Made by a program: the position numbers and the translations under genes
Shown here: positions 1 through 32,000 of the stretch, in pieces
Numbering within the stretch: the first letter of the stretch is position 1
Layout: each line of letters begins with the position of its first letter
From: Candidatus Peribacter riflensis
GTDB taxonomy: Bacteria; Patescibacteriota; Gracilibacteria; Peribacterales; Peribacteraceae
DNA length: 32,000 nt
NCBI GenBank assembly: GCA_001430755.1
Contig: CP013062.1
Coordinates: 270,001 to 302,000 of the forward strand
Direction: 5' to 3'
The notes under the pieces: generated by a model
Databases searched by the model: none
Told to the model about the DNA's origin: nothing
The model's input: the letters and a program-made list of their open reading frames with translations, nothing else

Positions 1-1
1 C

Positions 2-706
2 GATCGTATGCGTCGCGAGTTCAAAGTGGAGTCGAACGTCGGCACGCCGCAGGTGGCCTACCGCGAGACGATCCAGAAAGAGGTGGAGCACGAAGAGAAG
101 TACATCAAGCAGACAGGCGGCCGCGGACAGTACGGTCACGTCATTTTCAAGATCATTCCGCAGGAGCCGGGCAAGGGGTACGAATTCGTGAACGAGGTCG
201 TGGGAGGCCGTATTCCCCGCGAGTACATCTCGCCCTGCGACAAGGGTTTCCAGGAGGGCATGACGCGCGGTATCCAGGCCGGCTACCCGGTGGTGGATGT
301 GAAAGTGGAGCTCCTCGATGGTTCCTACCACGATGTCGACTCCTCTGAAATGGCCTTCAAGATCGCCGCATCCATCGGTTTCCAGAATGCCGCCAGAAAG
401 GCAGAGCCGATCATCCTGGAGCCGATCATGAAGGTGGAGATCGTCACGCCCGAGGAGTTTCTCGGCGACGTCATGGGCGATATCAACTCCCGCCGCGGCG
501 TGATCCAGAGTACGGGCGATCGTGGCTCAGCCAAGACGATTCAGGTGAACGTGCCGCTCTCCGAGATGTTCGGCTACGCCACGGATCTGCGCTCCCTCAC
601 GCAGGGCCGCGCCAGCTACTCCATGGAACCCAGTCACTATGCCAAGGTGCCGGGCAACGTGGCAGCCGAGGTGATTGCCAAGCGGGTGGGGGTGGTGAAG
701 AGGTAG
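2..706 (+). CDS. fusA: Elongation factor G, C-terminal ~234 aa (5' end outside window)
   Basis: The frame is open to the window edge. The translation [24 protein letters not shown]...GGRGQYGHV...[28 protein letters not shown]...[16 protein letters not shown] is the typical EF-G domain III-V sequence. TAG stop at 704-706. Confidence 0.95.
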
Positions 707-770
707 GGAATAGGGATTAGGGATTAGGACTTAGGACGAAGGGAAAAGGGAAAAGGGAAAAGGAAGAAGG
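704..770 (+). repeat. 7-nt periodic G-rich array beginning at the fusA stop codon
   Basis: The units are TAGGGAA TAGGGAT TAGGGAT TAGGACT TAGGACG (704-738), then GGGAAAA x3 (741-761) and GGAAGAAGG. The 7-nt period places TAG in all three frames. Positions 703-721 are identical to 17716-17734. Confidence 0.85.
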
Positions 771-781
771 ATTGGATGATA

Positions 782-810
782 TTGACTATATAAAATATAT
801 ATTGTATATT
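782..810 (+). promoter_or_regulatory. Sigma70-like promoter TTGACT-N17-TATATT
   Basis: TTGACT lies at 782-787 and TATATT at 805-810, with a 17-nt spacer, inside an AT-rich island ~100 nt upstream of the 909 ORF. Confidence 0.5.
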
Positions 811-908
811 CTTATTTGTCGGTTTTTCACAACTCGTACCTTGGGATGACCCACGATGGGCATTCCGCAAACTTTCCTCTTACCGGGGAAAGAGAAAGGT
901 GAAGAGAC

Positions 909-1232
909 ATGATCGTCTTTCTCACCGCCGTTTCTACTGTCGCTCTCGTGAACTTCTTCCGCGTCCTCGCACGCGATGAGATGTTCAAGGCGGGGATGTT
1001 CCTCGTCACCGCAGTCATCTGCGGTCTGTGGGCGACCGAGCTGCACGTTCCGGGTATGCGGGACTTCATTCCCGGGCCACTGGTGGCTCTGGGAACACTG
1101 TTGTTCTGTATCAGCCTGGAGCGGCATGAGAAGCCTGTCGCACGATGGGTCCTCGGACCCCTCGGGCAGATTCTCGGCGGAGGCTTGGCGATCGCCGGCC
1201 TCATCCTGGCGCAGATCTGCGTCGCGTGGTGA
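909..1232 (+). CDS. Small hydrophobic membrane protein (107 aa, 3-4 predicted TM segments), unknown function
   Basis: ATG is preceded by AGGTGA 6 nt upstream. The translation is dominated by hydrophobic stretches (IVFLTAVSTVALVNFF, FLVTAVICGLWA, LVALGTLLFCI, LGGGLAIAGLILAQI). A promoter lies upstream and a terminator hairpin downstream. Confidence 0.6.
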   Translation: MIVFLTAVSTVALVNFFRVLARDEMFKAGMFLVTAVICGLWATELHVPGMRDFIPGPLVALGTLLFCISLERHEKPVARWVLGPLGQILGGGLAIAGLILAQICVAW

Positions 1233-1250
1233 GGCGCCAAACCGACAAAT

Positions 1251-1287
1251 AAGCGCGGGAGGTATGACCCCCTCTCGCGCTTTCGTC
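1251..1287 (+). terminator. Intrinsic terminator-like hairpin after the small membrane protein gene
   Basis: AAGCGCGGGAGG (1251-1262) pairs with CCTCTCGCGCTT (1271-1282), giving a 12-bp stem with one G-U and an 8-nt loop. It is followed by TCGTCT, a weak U tract. Confidence 0.45.
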
Positions 1288-1354
1288 TGCCTCCACTATT
1301 TTAGTGTATTATCACATTGACACACTCATTCGGACACGGTAGGCTTCTGCTGTT

Positions 1355-1735
1355 ATGGGAAAAAGACGCTTCACCGAAGGCACCTGGAGAACGGATCCAT
1401 TGTTCCGGCGTCTCTGTAAGGCATTTCTCGCCTGCAAGAAAGAGAAGGAGGTAGGGGATTTCCTTCGCGACGTCGCGACCCTTGCCGAATTGAAGGCACT
1501 GAGCGAGCGTCTGGAAGTGGCACGGCTCCTCCTCGCAGGTATCAGTTACCGCGAGGCTGCGAAGTGCGCTCCTTCCAGTACAGCCACCGTCACACGCGTT
1601 GCGGGGTTCCTGAACGGCGGCGAAGGCGGCTACCGTTCCGTCCTCAAGACTCATAGACATCATTCTTCCAAGCGCCCACCTTCGCGCACAGCGCTACGGC
1701 GGGCAAGCGGGGAGAGGATGGTGTCGAAACAGTAA
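1355..1735 (+). CDS. YerC/YecD (TrpR-related) family helix-turn-helix protein
   Basis: The segment EVGDFLRDVATLAELKALSERLEVARLLLAGISYREAAKCAPSSTATVTRVAGFLNGGEGGY matches the conserved core of the Trp-repressor-like YerC/YecD family (L..RL.VA..L..G.SY..I......S.ATI.RV...L..G..GY). Confidence 0.75.
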   Translation: MGKRRFTEGTWRTDPLFRRLCKAFLACKKEKEVGDFLRDVATLAELKALSERLEVARLLLAGISYREAAKCAPSSTATVTRVAGFLNGGEGGYRSVLKTHRHHSSKRPPSRTALRRASGERMVSKQ

Positions 1736-1879
1736 GCGCTTTGTCCGATCGACCTCATCTCCTCCTCGCAGTGCGACGAGGGCGTTCTTTCTCTGTTTCA
1801 ACAGGCGAAGTCCGCTGCATGCGGATCCCACTTTCGGGAGAACGTAGTTTGTCCTTTCACATTGTCGGAGGAACGAAAG

Positions 1880-2953
1880 ATGAGCGTAGACACGCGGTAC
1901 AACGAGGTTGGTCGGAACGCCGGACTGCGGTATGGCATCATAGAGGTCACAACCCGATGCCAGCTGCGGTGCCCGGGTTGCTACATGGTCCGGCGTAATG
2001 CCCTGAACGATGGCGCCATGTCGCTCAAAGAGGCCATACGCATCCTCGACCTGTGCAGGCAGTACAGGTCTGGTGAGGAGCTCGAGACCATGGACATTTT
2101 GGGTGGGGAACCTCTGCTCTGGTCCCACCTGAAGTCCTACGTCAGCGAGCTGCTCCAACGCGGGATTCTGCCGTGGATTTTCACCAATATGGTGGCAATC
2201 ACCCCGGAGATGGCTTGCTGGCTCTTTGAACGCCGTGTGCACATCACAGGCAAGCTCAATATCGCTGATCCCGGCGACCCGGCGCAGATCAGACTTCAGG
2301 TCGAGATGATCGGTCGGGACGAGGGGATGGCGAGACGGATGATCGAGGGGATCAATGTTTTTCTCGAAGCGGGGTACAGGGATCCGCTCTTCCGTCTCCA
2401 GAATCTGGTTCGGAAGAAGAATCTGAATCTCATTCCGGGCTACATCGAGTTCTGCCGGTCACGCGGCATCGGGGTGGATCTTGAGCTCATGGGATCAGGC
2501 GAGCCGATTGGCCCGGAATACTTCGCGGTTGCGCCGACGGCGCAGGAGTTGGCCGATTTCATCCGGGGGCTGCAGGAGCGCGGGAAACAGAACGCCATTC
2601 CTGAATTCTGCGATCCGATCAGCAAGCTTCTGATGCCCCATGTATTCGGCTCCTGCCCCTTCTACGACAAGGGTTTGTACTTCGCAGTTGACGGGCACAT
2701 CCGGTCCTGTAGCAATAGCACCGTGCAGCTGGCCCATGTTTCCGATCCAGATCCCATCCGTGCGGCGTACGAGTCCCCGCTCATCTGCACCCGCAAGGCA
2801 CTGACCAAAAGTACGGTCGGGCAGCCATGCGGGACGTGCGATCGCTGGGATAAGTGTCGCGGAGGCTGCCGGGCCACCGTGGAGGGCATGGGCGACCCCT
2901 TCGGTGGCTACACGCTCTGCCCGCTTCCTCTCCTTCGCGGATCCTCCGAATGA
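1880..2953 (+). CDS. Radical SAM enzyme with C-terminal SPASM domain (peptide/protein-modifying type)
   Basis: CX3CX2C cluster motif at EVTTRCQLRCPGCYM. The full SPASM signature is present: CPFYDKGLYFAVDGHIRSC ... CGTCDRWDKCRGGC ... LCP. ATG at 1880 has GGAGG 8 nt upstream; the ORF track starts at TTG 1862. Confidence 0.9.
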   Translation: MSVDTRYNEVGRNAGLRYGIIEVTTRCQLRCPGCYMVRRNALNDGAMSLKEAIRILDLCRQYRSGEELETMDILGGEPLLWSHLKSYVSELLQRGILPWIFTNMVAITPEMACWLFERRVHITGKLNIADPGDPAQIRLQVEMIGRDEGMARRMIEGINVFLEAGYRDPLFRLQNLVRKKNLNLIPGYIEFCRSRGIGVDLELMGSGEPIGPEYFAVAPTAQELADFIRGLQERGKQNAIPEFCDPISKLLMPHVFGSCPFYDKGLYFAVDGHIRSCSNSTVQLAHVSDPDPIRAAYESPLICTRKALTKSTVGQPCGTCDRWDKCRGGCRATVEGMGDPFGGYTLCPLPLLRGSSE

Positions 2954-2958
2954 TTCAT

Positions 2959-2998
2959 GGGGTCTCAGCGTCTTTGTACGCTGAGACCCCTCTTATTC
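2959..2998 (+). terminator. Strong intrinsic terminator-like hairpin right after the radical SAM stop codon
   Basis: GGGGTCTCAGCG (2959-2970) pairs perfectly with CGCTGAGACCCC (2979-2990), giving a 12-bp stem and an 8-nt loop, followed by TCTTATTC. Confidence 0.65.
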
Positions 2999-3000
2999 AC

Positions 3001-3534
3001 ATGATCAAGATGGATCCAAAGATCCTTGCACAGGCCCGGAAAAAATTCAGAGAACTCTCTGAACGATTTGACGGTTTTATGACAGTCATTCTCGATAACT
3101 GGCGTGGCTATCGGTTCATCTATGATCTTGAGAGAGCATCTTGCTGCAGGTATGGGTGCCCCCGGTGTCCGCTGTACCAGCTCTTAAAGAACGAAAGTAG
3201 CGGCTTGTTTTCGGCCGCTTTGCTTCCTGCAAATTCCGATGACAAGCTCTTGTTCGGTCCTCAGAACTTTCTCAACTGCAAAAGTCTTGCTGAATATCAG
3301 GATGGTTACTCAAACTTTCTCGTGCGAAAGTGTTTCACCAGAAAAGAGATATGTGGGGAATTGGATTTGGTAAGGGAAATGCGCGTGATTTATTCGAGAA
3401 GCGGTTCATTGAGGCGCATTGAGATGAAATTTAAGAAAGGTGTCATCAGCAAAGCCTTGAAGCTGGCAAAGCCGGAACAGAAGAGGCTCATCCGGGGATA
3501 CCTCAAGCAGCATCCGGATTTCTTTACCGTATAA
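3001..3534 (+). CDS. Cys-rich hypothetical protein (177 aa; motif SCCRYGCPRCP), low-GC ORF
   Basis: The ORF has protein-like composition and 7 Cys, four of them within 10 residues. GC is ~45% against ~60-70% in the flanks. The start is uncertain: ATG 3001 lies after the hairpin, or ATG 2950 overlaps the rSAM stop as ATGA. Confidence 0.6.
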   Translation: MIKMDPKILAQARKKFRELSERFDGFMTVILDNWRGYRFIYDLERASCCRYGCPRCPLYQLLKNESSGLFSAALLPANSDDKLLFGPQNFLNCKSLAEYQDGYSNFLVRKCFTRKEICGELDLVREMRVIYSRSGSLRRIEMKFKKGVISKALKLAKPEQKRLIRGYLKQHPDFFTV

Positions 3535-3572
3535 GCTAAGATCGCGGGATTCCCCTGTGTCATACTGGAGTC

Positions 3573-4547
3573 ATGCATGAGGTCTTCATCCATCGGTGTC
3601 TGGAGCTCTCAGAACACGGCCGGGGCTGCGTCGGCACGAACCCGCTCGTCGGGGCCGTGCTCGTCCGTAACGGAAAGATCATTGCAGAGGCGTTTCACGA
3701 AGGCTTTGGCGGGCGGCATGCGGAGCGCGCGCTCCTCGAGGATTTTCGCGGGGCAATCGAACCTGCGGATATCCTCTACGTCAATCTGGAGCCCTGTTGT
3801 CACCAGGGAAAAACTCCTGCCTGTACCGATATCATCCGCAAGAGGGGAATCAAACATGTGGTGTTCGGCATGATCGATCCGGATGCTCAAGTGTCGGGGA
3901 AGGGGATTGCCTGCCTGCTCAAGGCGGGGATCCGTGTCACGGGTCCCGTAGAGCGTGCGCAGTGCGAGTGGCTCAACCGCGGATTCATTTCACTCCGCAC
4001 GAAGGGCCGTTCGTGGGTGACCCTCCACAGTGCCCGGACAAAGAACGGAGCCATTGCCCGGCCGGATGGGAGCCCGCTCAAGATCACTTCCAAGGAGCAG
4101 GACTGCTGGACGCATACGTGGCTTCGAGCCCGTCATGATGCCATTCTCGTCGGTGTGCAGACGATCGTGACGGACGATCCACAGTTGAATACAAGATTTG
4201 TTCAAGATTTACCCTCTCCGCTGCGAGTGATCCTCGATCCACACCTGCGTCTTCCGCTCACAGCCAGGGTAGTGACCGGCGAAAGCGCATCCGGCACGGT
4301 GATGATCACCTCTTCCGGAAGTGATGCAGCCAAACGGCAGGCGCTTCAGGAGAGGGGAGTCACGGTGGCCGAGATTCCTCTCGCAAACGGCTTGTTCGAT
4401 CTTCCAGAGCTCTGGAAGGCGCTTGGTACTCCTTCCGGTTCCTTCCACGGCATTGCGTCGGTTCTGATCGAAGGGGGAGAGAAGACGTGGAAGAACTTCC
4501 GGGAGGCAGGGTGCATCGACGAAGAGGTGACGCTGATCGGATCCTGA
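3573..4547 (+). CDS. ribD: Bifunctional riboflavin biosynthesis protein RibD (pyrimidine deaminase / uracil reductase)
   Basis: Deaminase motifs GGRHAERALL and LEPCCHQGKTPACTD are present. The C-terminal RibD_C-like reductase part reads LRARHDAILVGVQTIVTDDPQLNTR ... VLIEGGEKTW. Confidence 0.9.
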   Translation: MHEVFIHRCLELSEHGRGCVGTNPLVGAVLVRNGKIIAEAFHEGFGGRHAERALLEDFRGAIEPADILYVNLEPCCHQGKTPACTDIIRKRGIKHVVFGMIDPDAQVSGKGIACLLKAGIRVTGPVERAQCEWLNRGFISLRTKGRSWVTLHSARTKNGAIARPDGSPLKITSKEQDCWTHTWLRARHDAILVGVQTIVTDDPQLNTRFVQDLPSPLRVILDPHLRLPLTARVVTGESASGTVMITSSGSDAAKRQALQERGVTVAEIPLANGLFDLPELWKALGTPSGSFHGIASVLIEGGEKTWKNFREAGCIDEEVTLIGS

Positions 4548-4565
4548 AGGATTCCTTACGTATCG

Positions 4566-5261
4566 TCACTGCCACTTCCCGATAGGGTACATGATGCGGT
4601 TTCCCACGCGGTACAGGAAGGAGAAGAACTTCTGCTGGAGCTGAAAACGGGCAGGGAGCGTGCCGGTTTGCGCATAGGTCTTCACGATGCGTCCGAAACG
4701 CTTCCCCTGACGGCGCATGGCCTGCAGGCTCCCGGGCCTTCGATCCACCACCAGGCCGAAGCGGCCGCGACCCAGCATGCAGCGCGGTTCGAAGTGCCTG
4801 CCGAGGATGGTTGCCCCGTAGTACTTGAATGCCTCGGTGACGGAGAGGGTGGTGAGGAACATGAGTGCACGCCAGGCGAGCAGAGGGGCACCGCCGGCGA
4901 AGATGAAGGAGACGGGAAGACCTTTCAGCTGTCCTCTGGACCGTGTCTGCTGGTCGAGGGCGACCGCGCCTATCCGGTCGATGACGTTCTTCAGGTGCGC
5001 CGGCACCGAAAAATTCCAGATGGGTGTGGCGATGACGAGGCCTTTCGCCGAGAGCAGCAGATCCTGGATACGGCAGAAATCGTCCCCGCTCGGACACGAT
5101 GGATCGTAGTGTGCGAGCGTGAAATGCTCGATCGAGAGGTCTTTGAGACGCAGTTTCTCCACGGCAATACCCTCATCAGCAATGCCCATGGAAAAGGCTT
5201 CCGCCAGCACGGCGCTGTTGCTCGGCTCATTCGTGCCGGCGACGAGAACGAGGACAGGCAT
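4566..5261 (-). CDS. NAD(P)H-dependent FMN reductase / flavodoxin-fold oxidoreductase
   Basis: The sequence MPVLVLVAGTNEPSNSAVLAEAF...GLVIATPIWNFSVPAHLKNVIDR is typical of the FMN_red family. The start was chosen at MPVLV (5261); the ORF extends to 5459 but that extension overlaps the nrdJ control region. Confidence 0.75.
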   Translation of the reverse strand: MPVLVLVAGTNEPSNSAVLAEAFSMGIADEGIAVEKLRLKDLSIEHFTLAHYDPSCPSGDDFCRIQDLLLSAKGLVIATPIWNFSVPAHLKNVIDRIGAVALDQQTRSRGQLKGLPVSFIFAGGAPLLAWRALMFLTTLSVTEAFKYYGATILGRHFEPRCMLGRGRFGLVVDRRPGSLQAMRRQGKRFGRIVKTYAQTGTLPARFQLQQKFFSFLYRVGNRIMYPIGKWQ

Positions 5262-5453
5262 GCGTACATCATAGGGGAAGAACGCCGGCGTCGGGAGCCC
5301 AGGGGATTTCCCCTTTACTGCTTTTTGAAAATGATCCGCACTCACCATCATCCCATCTTTTCCCCATGAGGATTTTGTGCGACAGTAGCCCCCTTTTCGC
5401 AGGTGGACTGTTCGGGCGTCCACGAACTTCCCGACATTGACCGGACCGAAGAC

Positions 5454-5501
5454 CATCAATATCTTGTGTCATTGCACGGTCTGACACACAAGATACTGTG
5501 T
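5454..5501 (+). promoter_or_regulatory. Two NrdR-box-like 16-bp palindromes spaced 32 bp (start to start) upstream of nrdJ
   Basis: CATCAATATCTTGTGT (5454-5469) and ACACAAGATACTGTGT (5486-5501) were compared with the published NrdR-box consensus acaCwAtATaTwGtgt, giving about 12/16 and 14/16 matches. They sit 26-73 nt upstream of the nrdJ ATG. Confidence 0.6.
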
Positions 5502-5526
5502 CATCCATTCCTTACGTCACTCTCCC

Positions 5527-8500: not shown

Positions 8501-8928
8501 AAGAGATTCCGATGGTCAAGAGTCTTATGGATTACCTGGGGAGATGGCTCGCACTCAAGTTCCTCTCCAAGGACAGCGCGATGCGCTTTCATAACCACGA
8601 GCTGGTGGAACAGGCGTACCGCGAGGGGAGCAAGAGCAAAGACGCCTTTGCCATGAGCTTGCCGATCGTGGACGAAGGCGCACCCGCCCGTACCGATCCA
8701 CAACACGGATCGGGCGGGCAGGCGGTTGGATTCGCCAGCGTGTCGCACACCGCTCTGGAAGAAGAGGATCTCTCACGGTTCACTCCTCCCGTATCCTCCC
8801 ACATCGAGACCGCCCGCCAGCAGGGATTCACCGGTTCCGTCTGTTCCGGCTGCGGCGGAGTCCGTGTGAAACGTAATGGCAGCTGTGAGGTCTGCCTGGA
8901 TTGTGGAGCCACATCTGGCTGCAGCTAA
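5527..8928 (+). CDS. nrdJ: Class II (adenosylcobalamin-dependent) ribonucleotide reductase, long form with C-terminal Cys-rich tail
   Basis: The 1133-aa product carries [44 protein letters not shown] and [32 protein letters not shown], typical of NrdJ. The C-terminus is CSGCGG...CEVCLDCG. Confidence 0.93.
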   Translation: [1133 protein letters not shown]

Positions 8929-8973
8929 TCCGCCCTGCTGCATACTTCATCCTCATCCCTGTATACTCTCCGC

Positions 8974-9417
8974 ATGCCCGACTCCTGGCTCGACCGTCTT
9001 CCATCACAGGAACGTCAGCGCATCCGCGAACGGCTCCGGAGCCCGGCGGAGTATGAGAAATTGCGCGAGAAGGTGAAGGGCCCCGAAGATCTGGAACGTG
9101 AAATGGAGAGAAGCGCGCTTCTGGCGGAACTCCGGTTCGCCATGGAATCAGAGCCGAAACTCGCCGAAGCACTCCGTGCGCAGGTGCAAGAGGATGTGCA
9201 GCAGCACGGCCTCGATTCCGTGTTGCAGACTCTTCGCCTTTCTGAGGATCTCAAAGGTGCGCTGGAAAAAGGGGATTTCACGCTCTCTGTCCAGCCCGAT
9301 GCTTTGACCCATGTCGACCAGCTCGTTCTTGTTCCCGAAGGAAAAATCGCCGAAGCACTGCCGGTTTCTCAGAAATTCAGCGAGCAGTATCTGGGGCAGT
9401 TCAAGAAGGCAGCCTAG
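8974..9417 (+). CDS. Hypothetical charged, probably helical protein (147 aa)
   Basis: Clean ORF with no family recognised. It is rich in E/R/L (ERQRIRERLRSPAEYEKLREKVKGPEDLEREMER). Confidence 0.55.
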   Translation: MPDSWLDRLPSQERQRIRERLRSPAEYEKLREKVKGPEDLEREMERSALLAELRFAMESEPKLAEALRAQVQEDVQQHGLDSVLQTLRLSEDLKGALEKGDFTLSVQPDALTHVDQLVLVPEGKIAEALPVSQKFSEQYLGQFKKAA

Positions 9418-9576
9418 AGACTACATCGCGACGAACAAAAGGCCGAAAGCGCAGAGCATCCAAAACCAACGCATGAGGCTGCGCAGCCTACGACCTCTGT
9501 GGTAAGTTTTTCAAGAGCAAATCAAAAAGAGCCCTTGCTGAAGCCATCGAAGTTGAACAAAATATTACTTCAGAAA

Positions 9577-9879
9577 TCAGGGGTGGAGTGCGCTGAGTTT
9601 GGCTTGGTCATCATCCGGAGCGCACTTGTTCGTGATCGATTTTCCGCACACCGTGCACCGGTGGACGATCATCCAGCCCTTCGGGCCGCGAAAGTCCACG
9701 CCGACGGGTTCCATGAGCCCGCCACAACTCGATGCGCGATCCCCCGGGCCGCGGTCATCCACGTGCTTGCTCCAGAGACAGCGGGGGCAATGGTTGCGGC
9801 AGCTCCCGTGCTCCAATGGGTCCACCTTCGCCCCGCAGTGCTCACAGGTGAACGGTTCCTGACGGGAGATGAAAGGCAT
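9577..9879 (-). CDS. RNHCP-domain zinc-ribbon-like protein (100 aa)
   Basis: It contains the literal family signature CRNHCPRCLWSKHVD plus CEHCG and CTVCG pairs. Its ATG overlaps the ychF stop codon (TGATG at 9881-9877). Confidence 0.8.
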   Translation of the reverse strand: MPFISRQEPFTCEHCGAKVDPLEHGSCRNHCPRCLWSKHVDDRGPGDRASSCGGLMEPVGVDFRGPKGWMIVHRCTVCGKSITNKCAPDDDQAKLSALHP

Positions 9880-10973: not shown

Positions 10974-11061
10974 AAGAATAGTGAGTGATGAAGTGCCATA
11001 GAACGCTGGATTATTGAGGTTCCTGAGGCTTTTGTCCAAGGATGCGATCCCCGGTTGTGCA

Positions 11062-12845: not shown

Positions 12846-13220
12846 TTACTCCTCTCCGGCTGCTTCCTGCAGGATTGCGTTGGCCGCGTTCACGAGGCAC
12901 TGAGAGCGCCGCACGGGGCTCTGGCCTTCACAGTAGCGGAGCCTCTCGAGGGCCGCGCCGCGCAGGCCGGTGGCCGGCGCCTTCTCGGTGCGCGTTTCGT
13001 CATTGCTCCACTCGAGGCGGCGGGCACCTACGATGCCGTCATCCCGGTTCAGTCCCTGCATATCCAGCTCGCGGTTGTATCGCTGGCTGCGGTAGTTGTA
13101 ATCCGTGCGCGCGATGAGCAAGTCGGCTGTGAGTTCGGCGTAGTGCACGACTCCAGCACCCATCAGGACACCGACGAGGAGGCCGGTGAGCGCTGCGACG
13201 CGGATGTGGCGGTTTGCCAT
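12846..13220 (-). CDS. Small N-terminally membrane-anchored protein with C-terminal C-x10-C loop (paralog A, 124 aa)
   Basis: MANRHIRVAALTGLLVGVLMGAGVVHYAE forms the TM anchor, and YCEGQSPVRRSQC lies near the acidic C-terminus. The start was chosen at 13220, after the pyrimidine tract CTTCCTTCCCTTCCT. Confidence 0.6.
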   Translation of the reverse strand: MANRHIRVAALTGLLVGVLMGAGVVHYAELTADLLIARTDYNYRSQRYNRELDMQGLNRDDGIVGARRLEWSNDETRTEKAPATGLRGAALERLRYCEGQSPVRRSQCLVNAANAILQEAAGEE

Positions 13221-13262
13221 AGGAAGGGAAGGAAGAAAATGGAAGTAAAACAAGGAAGACGG

Positions 13263-13637
13263 TTATCGGTTTGTTTCGTTGGTAAGATCCTCACCGGAAT
13301 TACAGGCCGCGCGCCGGCGGGCATTGCCGGTCTGTGCGCAATCATCGCTGACCGGTTCCACGACCGTGGGGGCGCCGTGCAGGACCGGATCCGTTTCCGC
13401 GCTCTTCACGACGGGGCAGGGGCGCTCCTTGGAGGTGCCCCAGAAGAGGTTCTGCACAATGCTGCGCGGATTGATGCAGGTGCGTACCTGCTTCTTGATC
13501 GTGAGGTTCTTCGCGGCATTCGGGTCAACACCGCCGTAGGCCATGACTTGCGCATACTGCATGGTGCCGATACCGGCGAGTGCACCGACGAGTACACTCA
13601 GGAGGCTCACCACCACGAGGTTTCTGCTGTACACCAT
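13263..13637 (-). CDS. Small N-terminally membrane-anchored protein with C-terminal C-x11-C loop (paralog B, 124 aa)
   Basis: MVYSRNLVVVSLLSVLVGALAGIGTMQYAQ forms the TM anchor. The Cys pairs are TC-x19-CP and DCAQTGNARRRAAC. The anchor shares LVGxLxGxGxxxYAxxxA with paralog A. Confidence 0.6.
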   Translation of the reverse strand: MVYSRNLVVVSLLSVLVGALAGIGTMQYAQVMAYGGVDPNAAKNLTIKKQVRTCINPRSIVQNLFWGTSKERPCPVVKSAETDPVLHGAPTVVEPVSDDCAQTGNARRRAACNSGEDLTNETNR

Positions 13638-13677
13638 AGGGAAGGGGGGAAAGATGTGGATGTTGGGTGACGCGAAT

Positions 13678-13705
13678 ATTATAACACAATTCGAATATTT
13701 CTCAA
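13678..13705 (-). promoter_or_regulatory. Promoter TTGAGA-N16-(TGT)TATAAT on the minus strand
   Basis: Read on the minus strand: TTGAGA (13705-13700), a 16-nt spacer, and the extended -10 TGTTATAAT (13686-13678). It lies in an AT-rich island ~40 nt upstream of the 13637 start. Confidence 0.55.
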
Positions 13706-16254: not shown

Positions 16255-16371
16255 GTCGCGCGTATCCTACCATTCTAGCACGTTTTAGCCTTCCTCAGTA
16301 GGGGTTTATGGCTCTGGAGAGACAGAAGAAACCTGAGTCTACACTCAAAAATCGCACTGTACCGGTTCCCA

Positions 16372-16761
16372 TTACTTCCCCCACATCGTCTTTGCCTTCA
16401 TGAGGGTGGTGACTTTTTCAAGCAGCGTCTTGATCGTCATTTCGCTCTTGATGAAGAAGTCATCCGCCCCCAGACCGAGGCCCCTCTCCTTGTTCTTCGT
16501 ATCGCCGAAATTGCTCAGGATGATCACCGGGAACGTGCGCTGCGCACGGGGATAGCGCTCCAGGACCGCGAATCCGTCCAAGACAGGCATATTGAGATCG
16601 AGGATGGCGATATCGGGCTTCTCGCGTTCGACCTCCTGAATGGCCTCCTGGCCGTTCTGGACTGCCCGGATGTTGTAACCGGCAATCGTGAATTTCTTCA
16701 CGTAGACCTCGCGGAGTACCGCATCGTCTTCTGCAATGAGGATACTTGGTGTTTGCATCAA
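16372..16761 (-). CDS. Stand-alone response regulator receiver (CheY-like, no output domain)
   Basis: The motifs ILIAEDD, DIAILDLNMPVLDG, VIILSNFGD and DFFIKS cover all the conserved receiver residues. Confidence 0.88.
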   Translation of the reverse strand: MMQTPSILIAEDDAVLREVYVKKFTIAGYNIRAVQNGQEAIQEVEREKPDIAILDLNMPVLDGFAVLERYPRAQRTFPVIILSNFGDTKNKERGLGLGADDFFIKSEMTIKTLLEKVTTLMKAKTMWGK

Positions 16762-16805
16762 CTTCCATTATAGACCCTTTCTGTAAGCTTGTGAAGCTGC
16801 TGTTC

Positions 16806-16925
16806 TCGGCCTCAGGAGAGGGGATAGGGTTAGGGATAGGATGAGGACTAAACAAAATAAGCCACTCCATTCAATAATCCTAAACCTAACCCTAAACCTA
16901 ACCCTAACCCTAACCCTCAATCCTA
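16806..16925. repeat. Imperfect inverted repeat built from TAGGG / telomere-like CCCTAA units (tsf 3' end to receiver gene 5' region)
   Basis: The left arm is GGAGAGGGGATAGGGTTAGGGATAGGATGAGGAC (16806-16840). The right arm is CCTAAACCTAACCCTAAACCTAACCCTAACCCTAACCCTC (16879-16918). The arms are ~22/26 complementary, and the right arm includes (CCCTAA)x3. Confidence 0.85.
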
Positions 16926-17704: not shown

Positions 17705-17743
17705 GGGAGCGGGGAGTAGGGAATAGGGATTAGGACTGATGAC
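17705..17743 (-). repeat. rpsB-tsf spacer: C-rich (in mRNA sense) copy of the TAGGGAATAGGGATTAGG element
   Basis: Plus-strand 17716-17734, GTAGGGAATAGGGATTAGG, is identical to 703-721. ACTTAGGAC is also shared. In the transcript the spacer reads CCTAATCCCTATTCCCTACTCCCCGCTCCC-ATG. Confidence 0.8.
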
Positions 17744-18481: not shown

Positions 18482-18485
18482 GCGA

Positions 18486-18522
18486 TAGGGGGGAGGGGAT
18501 AGGGTGAGGGGGCAGAGGAGGG
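18486..18522 (+). repeat. Dense G-run tract (G6-A-G4-ATA-G3-TGA-G5-N7-G3) on the plus strand; C-rich leader of rpsB on the minus strand
   Basis: The sequence is TAGGGGGGAGGGGATAGGGTGAGGGGGCAGAGGAGGG. It satisfies the usual G3+N1-7 x4 quadruplex pattern. Confidence 0.7.
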
Positions 18523-18762
18523 AACCTCGGATGAGGTTCAGGAATGCAACCGGTGATACGCTCCTTGTCTCCCTTTCGACATCTACTCGCGTTGTGCGGA
18601 GGATTTCCCTCATGCGCCCCTCGGGGCGCACTCGGGACCAGGACCGCGGCGATCAATCGAAAGTGCGCACCGTTTATACAGAACTCCCTGAAGGCGCGCA
18701 ATGGCGATTGGCTGGAAAATACGGGTTCTGTGGTAGGGTGGGGCTGTTTTTCCCTCCATTCC

Positions 18763-19927: not shown

Positions 19928-19948
19928 GGTGTGGGAGGGGAAGGAAGC

Positions 19949-21349: not shown

Positions 21350-21420
21350 AGGTCGGAGGGAGCGTAGCGAAAGCGTGCGAAAACCGCCACTCCGCTTCGC
21401 TTGGAGGATGATTCGACATA

Positions 21421-21449
21421 TTCTCAAATAACAAAATATATGTTATAAT
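21421..21449 (+). promoter_or_regulatory. Promoter TTCTCA-N17-(TGT)TATAAT; predicted near-leaderless transcript
   Basis: The extended -10 TGTTATAAT lies at 21441-21449, only 12 nt before the ATG at 21462. No SD is present. Confidence 0.55.
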
Positions 21450-23132: not shown

Positions 23133-23240
23133 ACGGGACCATCGCATTGGTTGTGACGGGGAGAGAGGGTAGGTAGAATGCCTCCGCTCTCGAGACCAAG
23201 GTGCAGGTGCGCACTCTCGGGACATTCCCTCTCCTCCCTC

Positions 23241-24887: not shown

Positions 24888-24936
24888 TGCTCCCACGTCA
24901 AAAGGACCGTCCCGCGTACACGGTGCCGCGGCCCCG

Positions 24937-27393
<2,457 letters not shown>

Positions 27394-27396
<3 letters not shown>

Positions 27397-27487
27397 GGCG
27401 TAGGGGGTAGGGCGTAGGATTAGGGCATAAAAAGAAATACGAAATTTTCGTGACCCTACGCCCTACACCCTATTCCTACGCCCTGCG
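27394..27487. terminator. Inverted TAGGGCG / CCCTACG repeat array filling the gap between convergent gyrB and hisS
   Basis: The left arm is TAGGGCG TAGGGGG TAGGGCG TAGGAT TAGGGCA (27394-27427, starting with the gyrB stop codon). An AT-rich loop has its own small stem (ACGAAATTTTCGT). The right arm is CCCTACGCCCTACACCCTATTCCTACGCCCTGCG (27454-27487), ending at the hisS stop. Confidence 0.75.
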
Positions 27488-28840
27488 TTAGTCGTCCGTC
27501 GCTCCCGCAAACTGATCCCTCAAGGTGTACGTATCCAAATTCTTTTCGCCGAGGAGCTTGATCACATGATCCACGATGCCGTCGAAGGGGACCTCCTGCT
27601 GCTGACCTTTCTTCATGTCACGGAGGATGATCGTAGAGCGTTTCACTTCCATCTTGCCGAGCAGGAGCGCGAACGTGGCCTCAAACTTATCTGCCAGGCG
27701 CATCTGGCTCTTGAGGCTCGCTTCGCCCAGCGCGCCGACGGTGTGCACACCCTTCTCGCGGAGTGCCGAGATGAGCAACAGACAATTCTTCTTGGCTTCG
27801 GGCCCCAGCTGTGCGACGAAGACATCCACCTGGTCCTTGTGCGGGGCCTGCACGCCGGCCTCCTTCATGTGCCAGATGGTCCGCTCCATCCCGCCGGCGA
27901 ACCCGACACCCGGCGTCGGCTTGCCGCCGAGGAGCTCGATCAGGCCGTCGAAACGGCCGCCGCCCCCCACCGCGTTCTGTGCGCCGGTGGATTGATCCCA
28001 GAACTCGAAGACGGTCTGCGTGTAGTAATCCAGACCGCGCACGAGGTGGATATTCGGGACGTACGAGATCCCCAGTGCATCCAGGTACTCCAGCAGGGTT
28101 GCGTGGTACTGCTTGCTCTCGTCACTGAGAAACTGTTCGAGGGTGGGCGCGCCCTTCAGCAGAACCTGGGTATCCTCCTCTTTGGAATCCAGCAGCCGGA
28201 GGGGATTGGTGTCGAGCCGGGCGCGATCGAGCTCGGGGAGGTTCCTCTCTTTGCCGATGAAGAAATCTTTCAGCGCCTGCACGTACGCGGCGCGGTTTTC
28301 GGCTGTGCCGATGTTGTTGATCTGGAGCGTGAGCCGCTCGAGGATCTTCAAGTCTGCGAAAATCTTGGTGATGACGTGGATCAGCTGCGCATCGAGGCTG
28401 GGATCTTTGAGGCCGATCACCTCCAGATCGAACTGGTGGAACTGGCGGAAGCGGCCTTTCTGGGGGCGATCGTGCCGGAAACAGGGGCCGATGGCGAAGA
28501 GCTCCACGGGCTGGGGCAACTGCTGCATGCCGTGCTCAATGTATCCGCGGCAGATGCCGGCGGTGAACTCCGGGCGCAGGGCGAACTCACTCGTCTTCTC
28601 CTCGCCCTCATCCCTGCGTTTGCCGCTTACCGTGAAGAGCTCTTTCTCCACGATGTCGGTGTGTTCGCCGATGCCGCGCTCAAAGATGCGCCGGTCCTCG
28701 AAGATGGGAGGGTCGATGCGTCTATAGCCTGCCTGGCGGCAGCGGTGACGCACAGCCTTCTTGATGTAGGTCATGTAACGCTGTTCCTCGGGGAGGATGT
28801 CGTGCGTGCCTTTTGGAGTGCGGAATTGTGGTTCTGCCAT
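27488..28840 (-). CDS. hisS: Histidine--tRNA ligase
   Basis: The translation contains PKGTHDILPEEQRYMTYI, FAIGPCFRHDRPQKGRFRQFHQFDLEVIG and GGGGRFDGLIELLGG...GFAGGMER, the class IIa HisRS motifs. Confidence 0.93.
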   Translation of the reverse strand: MAEPQFRTPKGTHDILPEEQRYMTYIKKAVRHRCRQAGYRRIDPPIFEDRRIFERGIGEHTDIVEKELFTVSGKRRDEGEEKTSEFALRPEFTAGICRGYIEHGMQQLPQPVELFAIGPCFRHDRPQKGRFRQFHQFDLEVIGLKDPSLDAQLIHVITKIFADLKILERLTLQINNIGTAENRAAYVQALKDFFIGKERNLPELDRARLDTNPLRLLDSKEEDTQVLLKGAPTLEQFLSDESKQYHATLLEYLDALGISYVPNIHLVRGLDYYTQTVFEFWDQSTGAQNAVGGGGRFDGLIELLGGKPTPGVGFAGGMERTIWHMKEAGVQAPHKDQVDVFVAQLGPEAKKNCLLLISALREKGVHTVGALGEASLKSQMRLADKFEATFALLLGKMEVKRSTIILRDMKKGQQQEVPFDGIVDHVIKLLGEKNLDTYTLRDQFAGATDD

Positions 28841-28917
28841 AACGTTAGGGAATCTTAGCAGTGCGGTACGGGCTTGAGAAGGCTTTGAAGACGGAGGGGG
28901 GGTAGACAGCCGTTCTG

Positions 28918-28952
28918 CCCGTAGCGGAGGTTCTAAGAACTTCCGCTACGGG
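28918..28952. repeat. 16-bp hairpin with 3-nt loop between the 71-codon ORF and hisS
   Basis: CCCGTAGCGGAGGTTC TAA GAACTTCCGCTACGGG, with one mismatch. No U tract follows on the minus strand. Confidence 0.65.
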
Positions 28953-28971
28953 TGGCCGGACTGTAAGAGCC

Positions 28972-29187
28972 TTATTCCTGCGTGTCCTGCGCCTCTGACT
29001 TGGTTTGCTGAAGGACGACGCCGTCGCAAGCGCGCCGGACTTCGCCGGTCGTATGGTTTACGACGACGCGTGCATGGCGCGCAGCCTCGGCCTGCTCGGC
29101 CAGCTGTTCGGGCGTGCGCCTGCCTTCGACCTGATTGACGAGGACAGTCGTACCGTCCGGGGCGGTATGGGGGAGGAGAACGACCAT
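28972..29187 (-). CDS. Possible small protein (71 aa), unknown function
   Basis: The ORF is on the same strand as hisS, directly downstream of a terminator and leader. No motif was recognised. In DNA of this GC content an ORF of this size can arise by chance. Confidence 0.35.
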   Translation of the reverse strand: MVVLLPHTAPDGTTVLVNQVEGRRTPEQLAEQAEAARHARVVVNHTTGEVRRACDGVVLQQTKSEAQDTQE

Positions 29188-29208
29188 GGGATAAAGGGGG
29201 AAAGAATA

Positions 29209-29238
29209 GAAAGAAAAAACCCTCGCGGGTGGCGAGGG
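29209..29238 (-). terminator. Intrinsic terminator (minus strand) inside a 5' leader
   Basis: Minus strand: CCCTCGC (29238-29232) CACCC GCGAGGG (29226-29220) followed by TTTTTTCTTTC. It lies 22 nt upstream of the ATG at 29187. Confidence 0.6.
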
Positions 29239-29262
29239 CTTATTCGCAAGTTGGGAAGATCT

Positions 29263-29310
29263 CTACGCCAACCTACGCCCTCGCAGCGGGTGCATCATCA
29301 TGTGCATCAT
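29263..29310 (-). CDS. Candidate leader peptide uORF MMHMMMHPLRGRRLA
   Basis: The uORF reads ATG ATG CAC ATG ATG ATG CAC CCG CTG CGA GGG CGT AGG TTG GCG TAG. It is built on a duplicated ATGATGCAC unit and contains a second copy of the terminator 3' arm, GCGAGGG (29284-29278). Confidence 0.4.
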   Translation of the reverse strand: MMHMMMHPLRGRRLA

Positions 29311-29343
29311 GCCGAAGGCGGAAGACCGCAAATTCACGGGGCA

Positions 29344-29371
29344 AGTGTAAGACGAATTTGTCTTGTGTCAA
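29344..29371 (-). promoter_or_regulatory. Possible promoter TTGACA-N16-TACACT (minus strand)
   Basis: TTGACA lies at 29371-29366 and TACACT at 29349-29344. It would start a transcript ~25 nt upstream of the uORF. Confidence 0.4.
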
Positions 29372-29487
29372 CGAGATTCCGGGGTCGGGATGCTTTTCCA
29401 TTCCCTCATGCAAGGCCAAGAGAAACACCCATACTCAGTGTGATTGAGGTGGGGAAATGTTATGCTTGCCATCCTCACCCCACTCGT

Positions 29488-30240
29488 ATGCATCCATTCG
29501 CCACCATGGGCTCCGTGCTGATCGTCGGATCTGTGCTGATGAGTGGTTGTGCGCAGAAACCGGACTTTCCTGAACCTGCAGTCATCATCGATCATCCGCT
29601 TGTTCTGCAGCGCTCTTCTTCGTCTCAGGCATTTTCTTCGAGATCATCGGTTCCCACATCCCCTTCATCGTCGCAACCGGCAAGCCTGCTCATCAAGGTG
29701 CCATTCGCACCACAGTCACCCTTTGCCGTCTGGGATCAGCTCCACGAGGAAGCATGTGAAGAGATGTCGCTCATCATGGTGCATCACTTCCTTGCGGGTA
29801 CACCGCTCAGCATGATCGATGCGGAAGCGGAGATACAGCAAATGGTGGCCTGGGAAAGGGCGCATGGCTACGCCGACGATGTGAGCGTTGCTCAATTGGG
29901 GGCAATCGCAGAGAGCCTCTACGGATATCATTTCCGTGAGCTTTCTGATGTGACGGCCGAGAGTCTCAAAAGCGAACTTGTCGCGGGGAATCCCATTATC
30001 ATTCCGGCCTTTGGTCGCGCGCTCAAAAACCCTTTCTTTAGCGGCGAAGGTCCTTTCTATCACATGCTGGTCGTCGTCGGATACGCAGGAGACGGCTTCA
30101 TTACCAACGACCCCGGCACAAAACGGGGGGAGAAATACTGGTATCAGACGGAGGTACTCATGAACGCTCTGCATGACTGGATCGGCGTCAAAGAACTGAT
30201 CGCCACCGGCCCGAAGAATGCGCTCGTCATCGAACTGTGA
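29488..30240 (+). CDS. Lipoprotein with peptidase C39-like (Peptidase_C39_2-type) domain
   Basis: The signal and lipobox-like segment is MGSVLIVGSVLMSGC, followed by a Ser-rich linker. The domain reads PFAPQSPFAVWDQLHEEACEEMSLIMV ... YHMLVVVGYAGDGFITNDPG, with the Cys...His arrangement seen in C39-like/BtrH-type domains. The start is 29488 or 29506. Confidence 0.7.
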   Translation: MHPFATMGSVLIVGSVLMSGCAQKPDFPEPAVIIDHPLVLQRSSSSQAFSSRSSVPTSPSSSQPASLLIKVPFAPQSPFAVWDQLHEEACEEMSLIMVHHFLAGTPLSMIDAEAEIQQMVAWERAHGYADDVSVAQLGAIAESLYGYHFRELSDVTAESLKSELVAGNPIIIPAFGRALKNPFFSGEGPFYHMLVVVGYAGDGFITNDPGTKRGEKYWYQTEVLMNALHDWIGVKELIATGPKNALVIEL

Positions 30241-30298
30241 TCGTGTTATCAGAACGCAGCGTAGCCCCTTGAGTATTGGCAAACGAAGAGCCTGTCGT

Positions 30299-30670
30299 TT
30301 ACACGAGGTATTTCTCCGCAATATTCCAGATCTGATCATCATCCATGTCACTTTTGATGAGGTATTCATTCACATCAAAATCATTGCATTTGATGATATT
30401 TTTCTTGTCACTCAGATTGGTGCAGACGACGACGGGAAATTTCAACTTCTTCTTTTTCCTGTGCTGCAGGACGGCGAACCCGTCGACATTCGGCATCAGC
30501 AGATCCAAGAGGAGAAGATCGGGAGGATCCTGATCGATACTGTCGATTGCCTCCTGTCCGTCACGTGCAGTGCTCACACGAACGCCGTGCTTGGCGAGCA
30601 GGCTGCGGATCATGCTCAGGAGGAATGCTTCATCCTCGGCAACGAGGACGTGTTTCTGTGGCTTGTCCAT
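30299..30670 (-). CDS. Stand-alone response regulator receiver
   Basis: The motifs are VLVAEDE, DLLLLDLLMPNVDG, VVVCTNLSD and EYLIKSDMDDDQIW. The start was chosen at MDKPQK (30670). Confidence 0.85.
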   Translation of the reverse strand: MDKPQKHVLVAEDEAFLLSMIRSLLAKHGVRVSTARDGQEAIDSIDQDPPDLLLLDLLMPNVDGFAVLQHRKKKKLKFPVVVCTNLSDKKNIIKCNDFDVNEYLIKSDMDDDQIWNIAEKYLV

Positions 30671-30728
30671 AGGTGGGAGGAGAAAAGAAAAAAATGGAAA
30701 GCGAGTCTGCTGTCTGTCGGTCGGTTCT

Positions 30729-31091
30729 CTAGCGCAGGTATCCTTCGATCGCGGGCCAGAGATCATCATCGTCCAGATCGTTCTTCACGAAGTAATTCTG
30801 CGCCTGCATTTCCTTACACTTGTCCCGCGTTTCCTTGTCGCTGAGATTGGAGAGCACGATGACGGGGCACTCCAAGCTCTTTTCCCTGATGAACCTCATG
30901 ACGCCGTGACCATCCAGCACCGGCATGAGGATATCGAGGAGAAGCAAATCCGGCACTTCCTTCTCCAGAGCCTCAACCGCCTCCTTCCCGTTATAGGTGA
31001 TCGTGACACGTATGTTGTATTTGCTCAGAACTTTTGCCATCAAATCGGCGAGAGCAGTGTCGTCTTCGGCGATGAGAACGTGTTTGCTCAT
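30729..31091 (-). CDS. Stand-alone response regulator receiver
   Basis: The motifs are VLIAEDD, DLLLLDILMPVLDG, VIVLSNLSD and NYFVKNDLDDDDLW. It starts 7 nt after the kinase stop codon. Confidence 0.88.
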   Translation of the reverse strand: MSKHVLIAEDDTALADLMAKVLSKYNIRVTITYNGKEAVEALEKEVPDLLLLDILMPVLDGHGVMRFIREKSLECPVIVLSNLSDKETRDKCKEMQAQNYFVKNDLDDDDLWPAIEGYLR

Positions 31092-31097
31092 AAAAAA

Positions 31098-32000
31098 TCA
31101 GGAAGGAAATAAAAGAGTGAACGTGGTGCCCTTGTTCTCCTGTGAGACAAAAGAGATCGTCCCGCCGATCAGACGTACGATGTTATAGACCATATACAAG
31201 CCGATGCCGGTGCCGGCTTCCACCGGGCTGGCAACATTCGATGCACGAAAGAATTTCTCCGGGATTCTCTTTTGCTCCTCCTGCGGAATACCGTAACCCG
31301 TATCCGCCACATCGATACGGATCGACTCTTTTTCTTTGGTAACACTCATGCGCACCTTCCCGCCTCTGGGCGTATACTTGAGGGCATTGCTGAGGAGGTT
31401 ATCCAGAATTTCGATGAGCAGCTGCTTATCCGTTCGTACCATGAGATCCTGCGGACACTGAAGGGCGAGTTCCAGCCCGTTCCTCTGCCGGTGGGCATCA
31501 TGCAGACGGGAGATCTTTTCCAGCTCCCTCTGCAAGACCACCTGTTCAAGTTCCGGTTCCATGCCGTCCTCTTCAAGATGGGAGATCATCAGCATGCGCC
31601 GGATGGTCGAGGCCATGTTCATGGACGTTTCGTGTGCGGTTTTCACCAGCTTCGCCTGATCTTCGGTGAGATTTTCCCGCTTCAGACTTGAGAGGACCCA
31701 TCGGATCGCCGTGAGAGGCGTCCTCAACTGATGGGATGCGATGGACATGAATTCCGATCTGGCTTTTTCGATTTCCTTTTCTTTGGTGATATCTCGAAAC
31801 ACCTTTACGGCGCCGATCAGATCTTTGCCGATGAAGATGGGCGCAACCGTTAGGGCAACCGGAAAAGACGTTCCATCTTTCCGCTTGTAGTACATCGTTG
31901 TGGTTGTGGTTGTGGTGGAACGATCCTTCAGGGTCTTGGTGATCAGGCGTTCCAATGCCGGAATGGTTTTGCCGGTCGAGTCCGACATCGGTATGACCTT
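31098..32000 (-). CDS. Sensor histidine kinase (PAS-like + HisKA + HATPase_c), N-terminus outside window
   Basis: The H-box is SEFMSIASHQLRTPLTAI, the N-box NLLSNALKYTP and the G-boxes DTGYGIP and GTGIGLYMV. The frame stays open upstream of the listed ATG to position 32000. Confidence 0.9.
   Translation of the reverse strand, partial: KVIPMSDSTGKTIPALERLITKTLKDRSTTTTTTTMYYKRKDGTSFPVALTVAPIFIGKDLIGAVKVFRDITKEKEIEKARSEFMSIASHQLRTPLTAIRWVLSSLKRENLTEDQAKLVKTAHETSMNMASTIRRMLMISHLEEDGMEPELEQVVLQRELEKISRLHDAHRQRNGLELALQCPQDLMVRTDKQLLIEILDNLLSNALKYTPRGGKVRMSVTKEKESIRIDVADTGYGIPQEEQKRIPEKFFRASNVASPVEAGTGIGLYMVYNIVRLIGGTISFVSQENKGTTFTLLFPS

Follow-up and report, generated by a model that had tools for sequence, protein, structure and literature searches.

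The genes of Candidatus Peribacter riflensis do not use Shine-Dalgarno (SD) pairing to select their start codons, and many of these codons directly follow a G-poor, C/U-rich tract on the coding strand. We describe this signal in a 32,000-nt stretch of the genome (contig CP013062.1, positions 270,001 to 302,000; hereafter the window) of this uncultured groundwater bacterium, a member of the Peregrinibacteria within the Candidate Phyla Radiation (CPR). The start-associated, strand-specific signal is real and strong. We consider it probable, though well short of settled, that P. riflensis initiates translation independently of SD on unstructured pyrimidine leaders, probably via ribosomal protein bS1, and also uses leaderless mRNAs. 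The SD-free state is already on record in two surveys. Neither mentions pyrimidine leaders, and literature searches found no description of them for Peregrinibacteria or CPR. New here are the description and dissection of the replacement signal.

A preliminary description of this DNA had quoted 11 pyrimidine tracts before start codons. All 11 occur once each, at the genes named, on the coding strand and directly against the ATG. The same description placed tracts at about 20 of some 30 starts; the enrichment was borne out, and the count was slightly generous. Among 29 curated starts in the window, 15 have at least 15 pyrimidines at positions -20 to -1, and 18 have at least 14. A composite of 50,183 nt, comprising the window and 9 kb on each side (L085, L087), holds 44 curated starts. 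There, 27 of the 44 reach 15 pyrimidines in 20; of all 20-mers, counted on both strands, 4.8% do so (binomial p = 7e-25), and the enrichment over background is clear. The mean number of upstream pyrimidines is 14.4 at starts and 9.7 at 1,668 non-start ATGs (p = 6e-15). Between -20 and -1 the composition is 11% G, 39% C, 33% T and 17% A, compared with 30%, 28%, 21% and 21%, respectively, in the genome. The depletion of G spans -30 to +20 (10-16% G at -30 to -1 and 13-18% at +5 to +19). C is raised upstream and downstream of the start codon alike, and the enrichment of T and depletion of A are confined to the upstream side.

How specific is the tract for true starts? On the sense strands it precedes 22 of the 44 true starts and 4 of 606 internal ATGs; it thus marks half of the starts, at about 75 times the frequency seen for internal AUGs. 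With the search space matched, an ATG with a tract lies near the 5' end of 64% of P. riflensis genes, compared with 8% of internal controls. The corresponding figure is 25-50% in most relatives, 1 of 12 in the relative L005 and about 5% in unrelated phyla. The loci of relatives were gathered with a glycyl-tRNA synthetase (GlyRS) query (best match 83%), and the unrelated phyla returned by the same query formed the comparison set. Pyrimidine 20-mers are also found elsewhere (131 clusters in 100 kb of strand, about one fifth of them at starts). We rejected such 20-mers alone as a predictor of starts, since they are widespread antisense to purine-rich coding sequence.

These counts depend on the start calls, which were verified without using upstream sequence. 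The window fits its source: its GC content is 59%, that of the five complete 1.25-Mb P. riflensis genomes is 58.5%, the GC content at third codon positions of real genes is near 0.8, and rpsU (_277) and gyrB (_278) follow one another as in the P. riflensis genome table. Identical copies of its EF-Ts, 107-aa and response-regulator proteins are found on scaffolds from the Rifle aquifer and in an NCBI assembly. The tracts could be an artefact if the starts were mis-called and the true ones carried SD motifs, and three starts did turn out to be in need of correction or ambiguous. The FMN reductase gene (4566-5456, -) is annotated with 296 aa, but the FMN_red and Flavodoxin_2 models begin at residue 66, which moves the start from 5456 to ATG 5261; the first 65 annotated residues are probably not translated. 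The dsbB start is either 18763 or 18883, and the family model begins near ATG 18883. The third is the C39-like peptidase open reading frame (ORF) at 28999-30240 (+). Its long version of 411 aa is probably over-extended: one annotation gives it no more than 158 aa, and the presence of a lipobox (LMSGC) inside it points to a start further downstream.

However, the remaining evidence backs the starts used. The gene calls of ENA, JGI and NCBI are mutually consistent with them, and the aligned position is also the start in orthologues from relatives. For rpsB, tsf, glyQS, hisS, gyrB, ychF and nrdJ, NCBIfam and Pfam models begin no more than a few residues from the N-terminus used here; the tsf start coincides with position 1 of TIGR00116, and residues 1-363 of ychF align to positions 1-367 of TIGR00092. 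The corrected FMN reductase start likewise has a TTCTTCCCCT block. The association also persists when start calls are ignored. A tract containing no more than one G precedes 14 of the window's 1,076 ATGs, and 10 of these 14 begin ORFs of 100 codons or more (odds ratio 7.5), whereas the odds ratio of SD words for long ORFs is 1.1. Correcting starts does not place SD motifs at most genes, and we reject the artefact.

The preliminary description had suggested that initiation is not led by SD, and this conclusion stands. Canonical SD 5-mers precede 2 of the 44 starts and 11% of non-start ATGs, that is, they occur at or below chance. The two sites, AGGTGA and GGAGG, are listed in Table 1. Two further purine-rich words that had been read as SD-like, GGAG before ribD and GGAAG near 16761, are each flanked by a -10 box on one side and the ATG on the other. 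The accompanying premise of a canonical CCUCC anti-SD fails. In the re-annotation by Amin et al. (2018), P. riflensis (GCA_001430885.1) is listed as 'no antiSD', with the 13-nt 16S tail GAACACTTCCTTA (GAACACUUCCUUA); the same variant tail is given for Peribacteria GWC2_54_8, and of 13 unranked Peregrinibacteria genomes 2 are without an anti-SD. A 2024 survey likewise classes P. riflensis as SD-scarce, without CCUCC and with 7% SD genes. Nor is there any enrichment of words that could pair with the variant tail (2 of 44 starts and 9% of non-start ATGs). An adapted SD complementary to CUUCCUUA was looked for and not found, and a reverse-complemented SD or wrong strand assignment was rejected because the tracts lie on the coding strand. 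No 16S 3' end was found in the 84 loci; scans of metagenomes for helix 45 plus tail gave 0 matches and then 120 chance matches, none of them rRNA. No known RNA family was detected in the window at gathering thresholds.

The tracts might act at the level of DNA or transcription, as promoter spacers or discriminators, Rho-loading sites, polypurine-polypyrimidine runs prone to form H-DNA, or products of mutational strand bias. Rho prefers C-rich, G-poor RNA, and the pyrimidine 20-mers are, as noted, not limited to starts. Moreover, two of the tracts quoted earlier probably belong to promoters of leaderless or short-leader mRNAs: that of rpsU consists of a promoter spacer and -10 box, and that of glyQS shares part of its sequence with a -10 box. 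Against such an origin, tracts abut the ATG, are too short for rut sites, and fill intra-operon spacers of 21-92 nt in which no promoter is needed (rpsL-rpsG, rpsB-tsf and glyQS with the hypothetical gene that follows). Among co-directional spacers of 15-110 nt, 11 of 14 contain a tract, including these three (the last leading to ATG 19927) and those of two 124-aa paralogues. The same non-SD tract is found near first and internal operon genes. In divergent pairs, where about half of the promoter-proximal genes have a tract, its orientation follows the downstream gene on both strands, and the depletion of G runs on into the first codons. The tract is strand-specific, tied to starts and present in intercistronic spacers, and therefore behaves like a translation-level signal. 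We regard an origin at the DNA or transcription level as very improbable.

Genes without a tract often have a promoter close to the start codon. TAnnnT ends 4-13 nt upstream of 11 of the 44 starts, compared with 3.2% of non-start ATGs (p = 1e-7), and this box covers 8 of the 17 genes that lack a tract. We predict that these genes are transcribed as leaderless or short-leader mRNAs. At rpsU, the arrangement TTGCnn-17-TAnnnT and its distance of 9-14 nt to the ATG are kept in six relatives, although the C-richness of the spacer is not kept in all of them. The promoters of rpsU, the coupling-protein-like gene of a type IV secretion system (T4SS), glyQS, prsW and gyrB are conserved in relatives, in which glyQS, prsW, ychF, the coupling-protein-like gene, gyrB and hisS behave similarly to rpsU. 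The top upstream motif published for P. riflensis is TACACT (Amin et al. 2018). The TAnnnT class agrees with this motif and with the dual-model logic of GeneMarkS-2 group C. The tract is at its most regular in positions that rule out a leaderless mode.

Is the tract a motif or a composition? Mainly the latter. The preliminary description had proposed a CCUCC core, but the signal consists mainly of G depletion and C/U enrichment. A 'CCUCC-like' tract was rejected: CCTC and CTCC are not over-represented against shuffles, whereas TTCC, TCCC and TTCCC are, and the most strongly over-represented word is UUCCC. The predicted minimum free energy over -30 to +30 is -7.1 kcal/mol at starts and -15.0 kcal/mol inside genes (p = 7e-15); it is -4.9 kcal/mol for starts with a tract, and the folding minimum is centred at -20 to +10. 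This reduction in structure is entirely accounted for by composition (z about 0 against shuffles).

Such a result would also be expected if purines were avoided passively, without positive recognition. Upstream regions might lack purines merely to prevent pairing with the pyrimidine-rich tail CUUCCUUA, or to remove G-C pairing, and any accessible AUG would then be used. G (11%) and A (17%) are both below their genomic levels upstream, composition alone accounts for the loss of structure, and published work indicates that absence of structure suffices for SD-independent initiation. The rarity of tail-complementary words at starts points the same way, but their depletion is not statistically significant at this sample size. 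Passive avoidance also leaves unexplained the order of U before C, the excess of TTCCC and the A-rich leaders of distant Peregrinibacteria. We consider it improbable as the whole explanation.

We therefore return to initiation on open pyrimidine leaders, for which we propose the following scheme. Promoter-proximal genes would often be leaderless or have leaders of a few nucleotides, with a TAnnnT -10 box ending 4-13 nt before the start. Leadered genes, above all internal cistrons, would present a G-depleted, C/U-rich tract of 20-45 nt that reaches the AUG, U-rich distally and C-rich from about -12, with G depletion continuing through roughly the first six codons. Removal of G, as a pairing partner, would keep the whole ribosome-docking region single-stranded. 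The 30S subunit would load on the open tract, probably through the multi-domain bS1, and would then take the first AUG downstream. A place for the tract within the mRNA, the recruitment of ribosomes by it and its reading by bS1 are all inferred. The genome table of P. riflensis lists an rpsA (K02945) of 486 aa (E = 3.5e-116), together with IF3, a CspA homologue and a prfB of 352 aa (_827).

Several points weigh against this scheme. Some concern its foundations: the sample covers 4% of the genome, leader lengths and the leaderless class are predicted from sequence, and the replacement of CCUCC by CUUCC in the 16S tail is taken from published tables rather than from the rRNA gene itself. The preference of bS1 for pyrimidine-rich single strands comes from work on E. 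coli, not on P. riflensis. Others concern the signal. TTCCC occurs in 19 of the 44 upstream regions, compared with 3.9% of genomic 35-mers and 7.8 regions expected from shuffles (z = 4.4), and its first C falls at -10 to -17 in 14 of 20 occurrences. This excess and clustering suggest something more specific than composition. A is mildly depleted upstream rather than enriched, and in L006, a relative of 40% GC, C-runs persist in otherwise AT-rich leaders; a requirement for absence of structure alone therefore falls short.

What might a more specific signal be? A discrete element, UUCCC or UUCCCC (a U-run followed by a C-run) starting about 12-13 nt before the AUG, could replace the SD and be bound by a specific partner, either a purine-rich stretch of rRNA outside the 3' tail or a C/U-binding platform protein. 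The excess and placement of TTCCC fit this proposal. So does the positional order, with T preferred at -21 to -14 and C at -12 to -6 (Fisher p = 5e-8 over all 44 starts, unselected), and the L006 leaders contain TTTCCTCCC- and CTCCCCTTCC-type blocks at a distance of 8-20 nt upstream of the ATG. In addition, A, which could keep a leader open just as well, shows no enrichment. However, the T-to-C gradient was not replicated in 23 tract-bearing starts from eight relatives (p = 0.7), and the leaders of orthologues show no sequence conservation. Tract lengths range from 13 to 43 nt, TTCCC is absent from many tracts, and the 13 nt known of the 16S tail read like the motif itself and not like its complement. 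We find a discrete element doubtful, and slightly more doubtful still the narrower proposal that, in the Peribacteraceae, UUCCC about 13 nt before the AUG is a positive replacement for the SD that the ribosome reads sequence-specifically. Its reader could be a purine-rich rRNA segment; or it could be a pocket of the platform in which the similar CUUCC 3' end of the rRNA normally sits, and mRNA leaders would then mimic that end. The positive pyrimidine signal suspected in the preliminary description thus finds support in the clustering of UUCCC at -10 to -17 in P. riflensis, but not in replication among relatives, and a sequence-specific signal of this kind is only weakly indicated.

Comparison with relatives supports composition as the conserved property. 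The rpsB and tsf leaders are C/U-rich in 7 of 7 relatives, including genomes of 40-50% GC, although their sequences differ. More distant Peregrinibacteria (L011, L012 and L032) have A-rich or leaderless starts, and the pyrimidine solution therefore appears to be derived within the Peribacteraceae. In a matched-control test, T-rich tracts were also seen at 5 of 17 gene starts in L031 (Magasanikbacteria) and 4 of 15 in L032, both low in GC, compared with 0 in controls; this excess hints that pyrimidine leaders may exist elsewhere in CPR. Two further observations concern individual relatives. In L006, the rpsB ATG (ORF from about 7172, +) is preceded by about six tandem CCCTAA/CCCTAG units. L006 (78% GlyRS identity to Peribacter) and L011 (62%) have Peribacter-like synteny; they are labelled Kiritimatiellales and Nitrospirota, respectively, and are probably mis-binned.

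The closest analogue among known systems is the non-SD initiation of Bacteroidia (GeneMarkS-2 group B). As in P. riflensis, there is almost no SD, a compositional signal lies near first and internal genes, structure is weak, and the 16S tail begins GAAC rather than GAUC; in some Flavobacteriia the anti-SD is mutated. However, the lineages are unrelated, and Bacteroidia leaders are A-rich and Kozak-like, whereas those of the CPR bacterium P. riflensis are C/U-rich and purine-poor. In Bacteroidia the anti-SD is sequestered by bS21, bS18 and bS6, and bS21 has a less basic C-terminus with Tyr54, with matching residues in bS18 and bS6. The C-terminus of P. riflensis bS21 is basic; the bS21 encoded in the window matches bS21 chains in the PDB only weakly (E = 0.13-0.45), in an alignment that ends before residue 54. 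The window has no gene for bS18 or bS6. Bacteroidia-type autoregulation of rpsU relies on an SD complementary to the tail, while rpsU of P. riflensis lacks such a complement; instead, a promoter at a distance of 9-14 nt from its ATG is conserved. The Flavobacteriia ASD2 group resembles P. riflensis in that its anti-SD core is mutated clade-wide. There, rpsU has a covarying SD; in P. riflensis no covarying complementary motif is found at rpsU or elsewhere, the 5-nt complement at 2 of the 44 starts being below background.

Other systems share single features. Published work on non-SD starts describes a symmetric nucleotide bias together with weak structure, with S1 as a possible reader (Nakagawa 2017; Scharff 2011). 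That pattern includes G depletion and C enrichment on both sides and a low folding energy driven by composition, as here, but it is mostly of the A/U type, whereas the bias in P. riflensis is pyrimidine-specific at 58% GC, with A depleted upstream and U preceding C. S1 is cited as a reader of U-rich upstream sequences, and recruitment through bS1 in E. coli and on some cyanobacterial mRNAs involves a single-stranded pyrimidine-rich segment upstream; P. riflensis has such segments and a long rpsA. In E. coli, however, the S1 site assists an SD from upstream, while the P. riflensis tract extends as far as the AUG, becomes C-rich close to it and is accompanied by no SD. GeneMarkS-2 group C shares with P. 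riflensis a Pribnow-type box about 10 nt before promoter-proximal starts and another signal at internal genes. Its internal or leadered genes use SD, where P. riflensis uses pyrimidine tracts.

Table 1. Tracts, promoter-like boxes and SD-like sites at gene starts, numbered from the first nucleotide of the window (aa, amino acids)
Feature	Position	Strand	Details
nrdJ leader, pyrimidine-rich and G-poor, abutting ATG 5527	5499..5526	+	16/20 pyrimidines, 1 G; -10-like GATACT at 5492-5497
ychF leader, G-free, C/U/A (ATG 10973)	10974..10995	-	start confirmed by TIGR00092
Tract of 124-aa gene (ATG 13220)	13221..13259	-	fills 42-nt spacer; 19/20 pyrimidines, 0 G
Tract of paralogous 124-aa gene (ATG 13637)	13638..13662	-	TATAAT at 13678-13683, predicted leader about 34 nt
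tsf tract (ATG 17704)	17705..17735	-	39-nt rpsB-tsf intercistronic spacer; C/U-rich in 7/7 relatives
rpsB tract (ATG 18481)	18482..18524	-	43 nt
Tract of DsbB-like gene (ATG 18763)	18744..18762	+	start ambiguous
Tract of 192-aa gene (ATG 19927)	19928..19947	-	fills 21-nt spacer after glyQS; 18/20 pyrimidines, 0 G
ctp tract (ATG 23241)	23223..23240	+	
Tract of 71-aa ORF (ATG 29187)	29188..29219	-	not listed in the preliminary description
Response regulator tract (ATG 30670)	30671..30705	-	
Second response regulator tract (ATG 31091)	31092..31126	-	largely within 3' end of histidine kinase gene
Region upstream of FMN reductase (corrected ATG 5261)	5262..5286	-	contains TTCTTCCCCT at 5273-5282
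Region of 147-aa gene (ATG 8974), pyrimidine-rich	8941..8973	+	class ambiguous; -10-like CATACT at 8941-8946 and TATACT at 8962-8967
rpsU promoter, not a pyrimidine leader	25162..25190	-	-35 TTGCAA at 25185-25190, C-rich 17-nt spacer, -10 TACCCT at 25162-25167, ATG 9 nt downstream
glyQS -10-like box	21350..21366	-	TACGCT at 21361-21366, 11 nt before ATG; TAnnnT 6-7 nt before ATG in orthologues
Response regulator (ATG 16758), predicted leaderless	16767..16772	-	TATAAT 8 nt before ATG
T4SS coupling-protein-like gene (GTG 16254)	16264..16277	-	TAGAAT and TAGGAT 9-17 nt before start; boxes conserved in relatives
gyrB (ATG 25354)	25338..25343	+	TAGAAT 10 nt before ATG; identical sequence in L005
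hisS (ATG 28840)	28852..28857	-	TAAGAT 11 nt before ATG
prsW (ATG 21462)	21444..21449	+	TATAAT 12 nt before ATG; G-free short leader
trpR-like gene (ATG 1355)	1317..1345	+	TTGACA-17-TAGGCT promoter ending 9 nt upstream
ribD (ATG 3573)	3561..3566	+	CATACT 6 nt before ATG; GGAG of the preliminary description 2 nt from ATG
SD-like AGGTGA	897..902	+	6 nt before ATG 909; one of only two SD-like sites, chance level
SD-like GGAGG	1867..1871	+	8 nt before radical-SAM ATG 1880; second SD-like site

Two of the loci in Table 1 have further features. The 124-aa paralogues lie in tandem at 12846-13220 and 13263-13637 (-), with N-terminal hydrophobic anchors and a very strong tract each; a similar pair is found in L006. 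The 71-aa ORF (28975-29187, -) lies inside the long C39-like peptidase ORF, with a very strong tract and, upstream, a hairpin and T-run.

Telomere-like G-triplet repeats follow some stop codons directly on the sense strand. We found them after fusA, tsf, gyrB and hisS, that is, at 4 of 44 genes, compared with 1.2% of 80-nt windows. The fusA array (704-771, +) consists of (TAGGGAT)x3.6 and (AAGGGAA)x4; it has no partner and could form a G-quadruplex. The tsf array (16875-16917, sense strand -) is (GGGTTA)x7, and some 40 nt further downstream, at 16814-16836, lies a complementary TCCCTAACCCTATCCCC. The arrays of gyrB (27394-27418, +; (TAGGGCG)x3.6) and hisS (27454-27484, sense strand -; (CGTAGGG)x4.6) are complementary to each other and might fold into a hairpin that terminates transcription from both directions. 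At 690-830 (-), promoter-like sites (830-801 and 822-794) would drive a pure-pyrimidine RNA without an ORF, antisense to the 3' end of fusA. With a predicted structure of 0 kcal/mol over 106 nt, this RNA resembles a start leader without a gene; alternatively, the run may be no more than the complement of the fusA 3' G-repeats.

What do pyrimidine leaders mean for start selection? Selection of starts without SD is known mainly from Bacteroidia, with their A-rich leaders, from cyanobacteria and from lineages rich in leaderless mRNAs. In the GC-rich genome of P. riflensis, the tract is a third compositional way of making a start accessible, and it offers gene finders a usable start signal in Peribacteria. 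Here, a CPR bacterium with a mutated anti-SD would combine leaderless mRNAs with long C/U-rich leaders. P. riflensis thus lends itself to asking, in a natural setting, if such leaders are read positively by bS1 or another factor or if lack of structure is enough.

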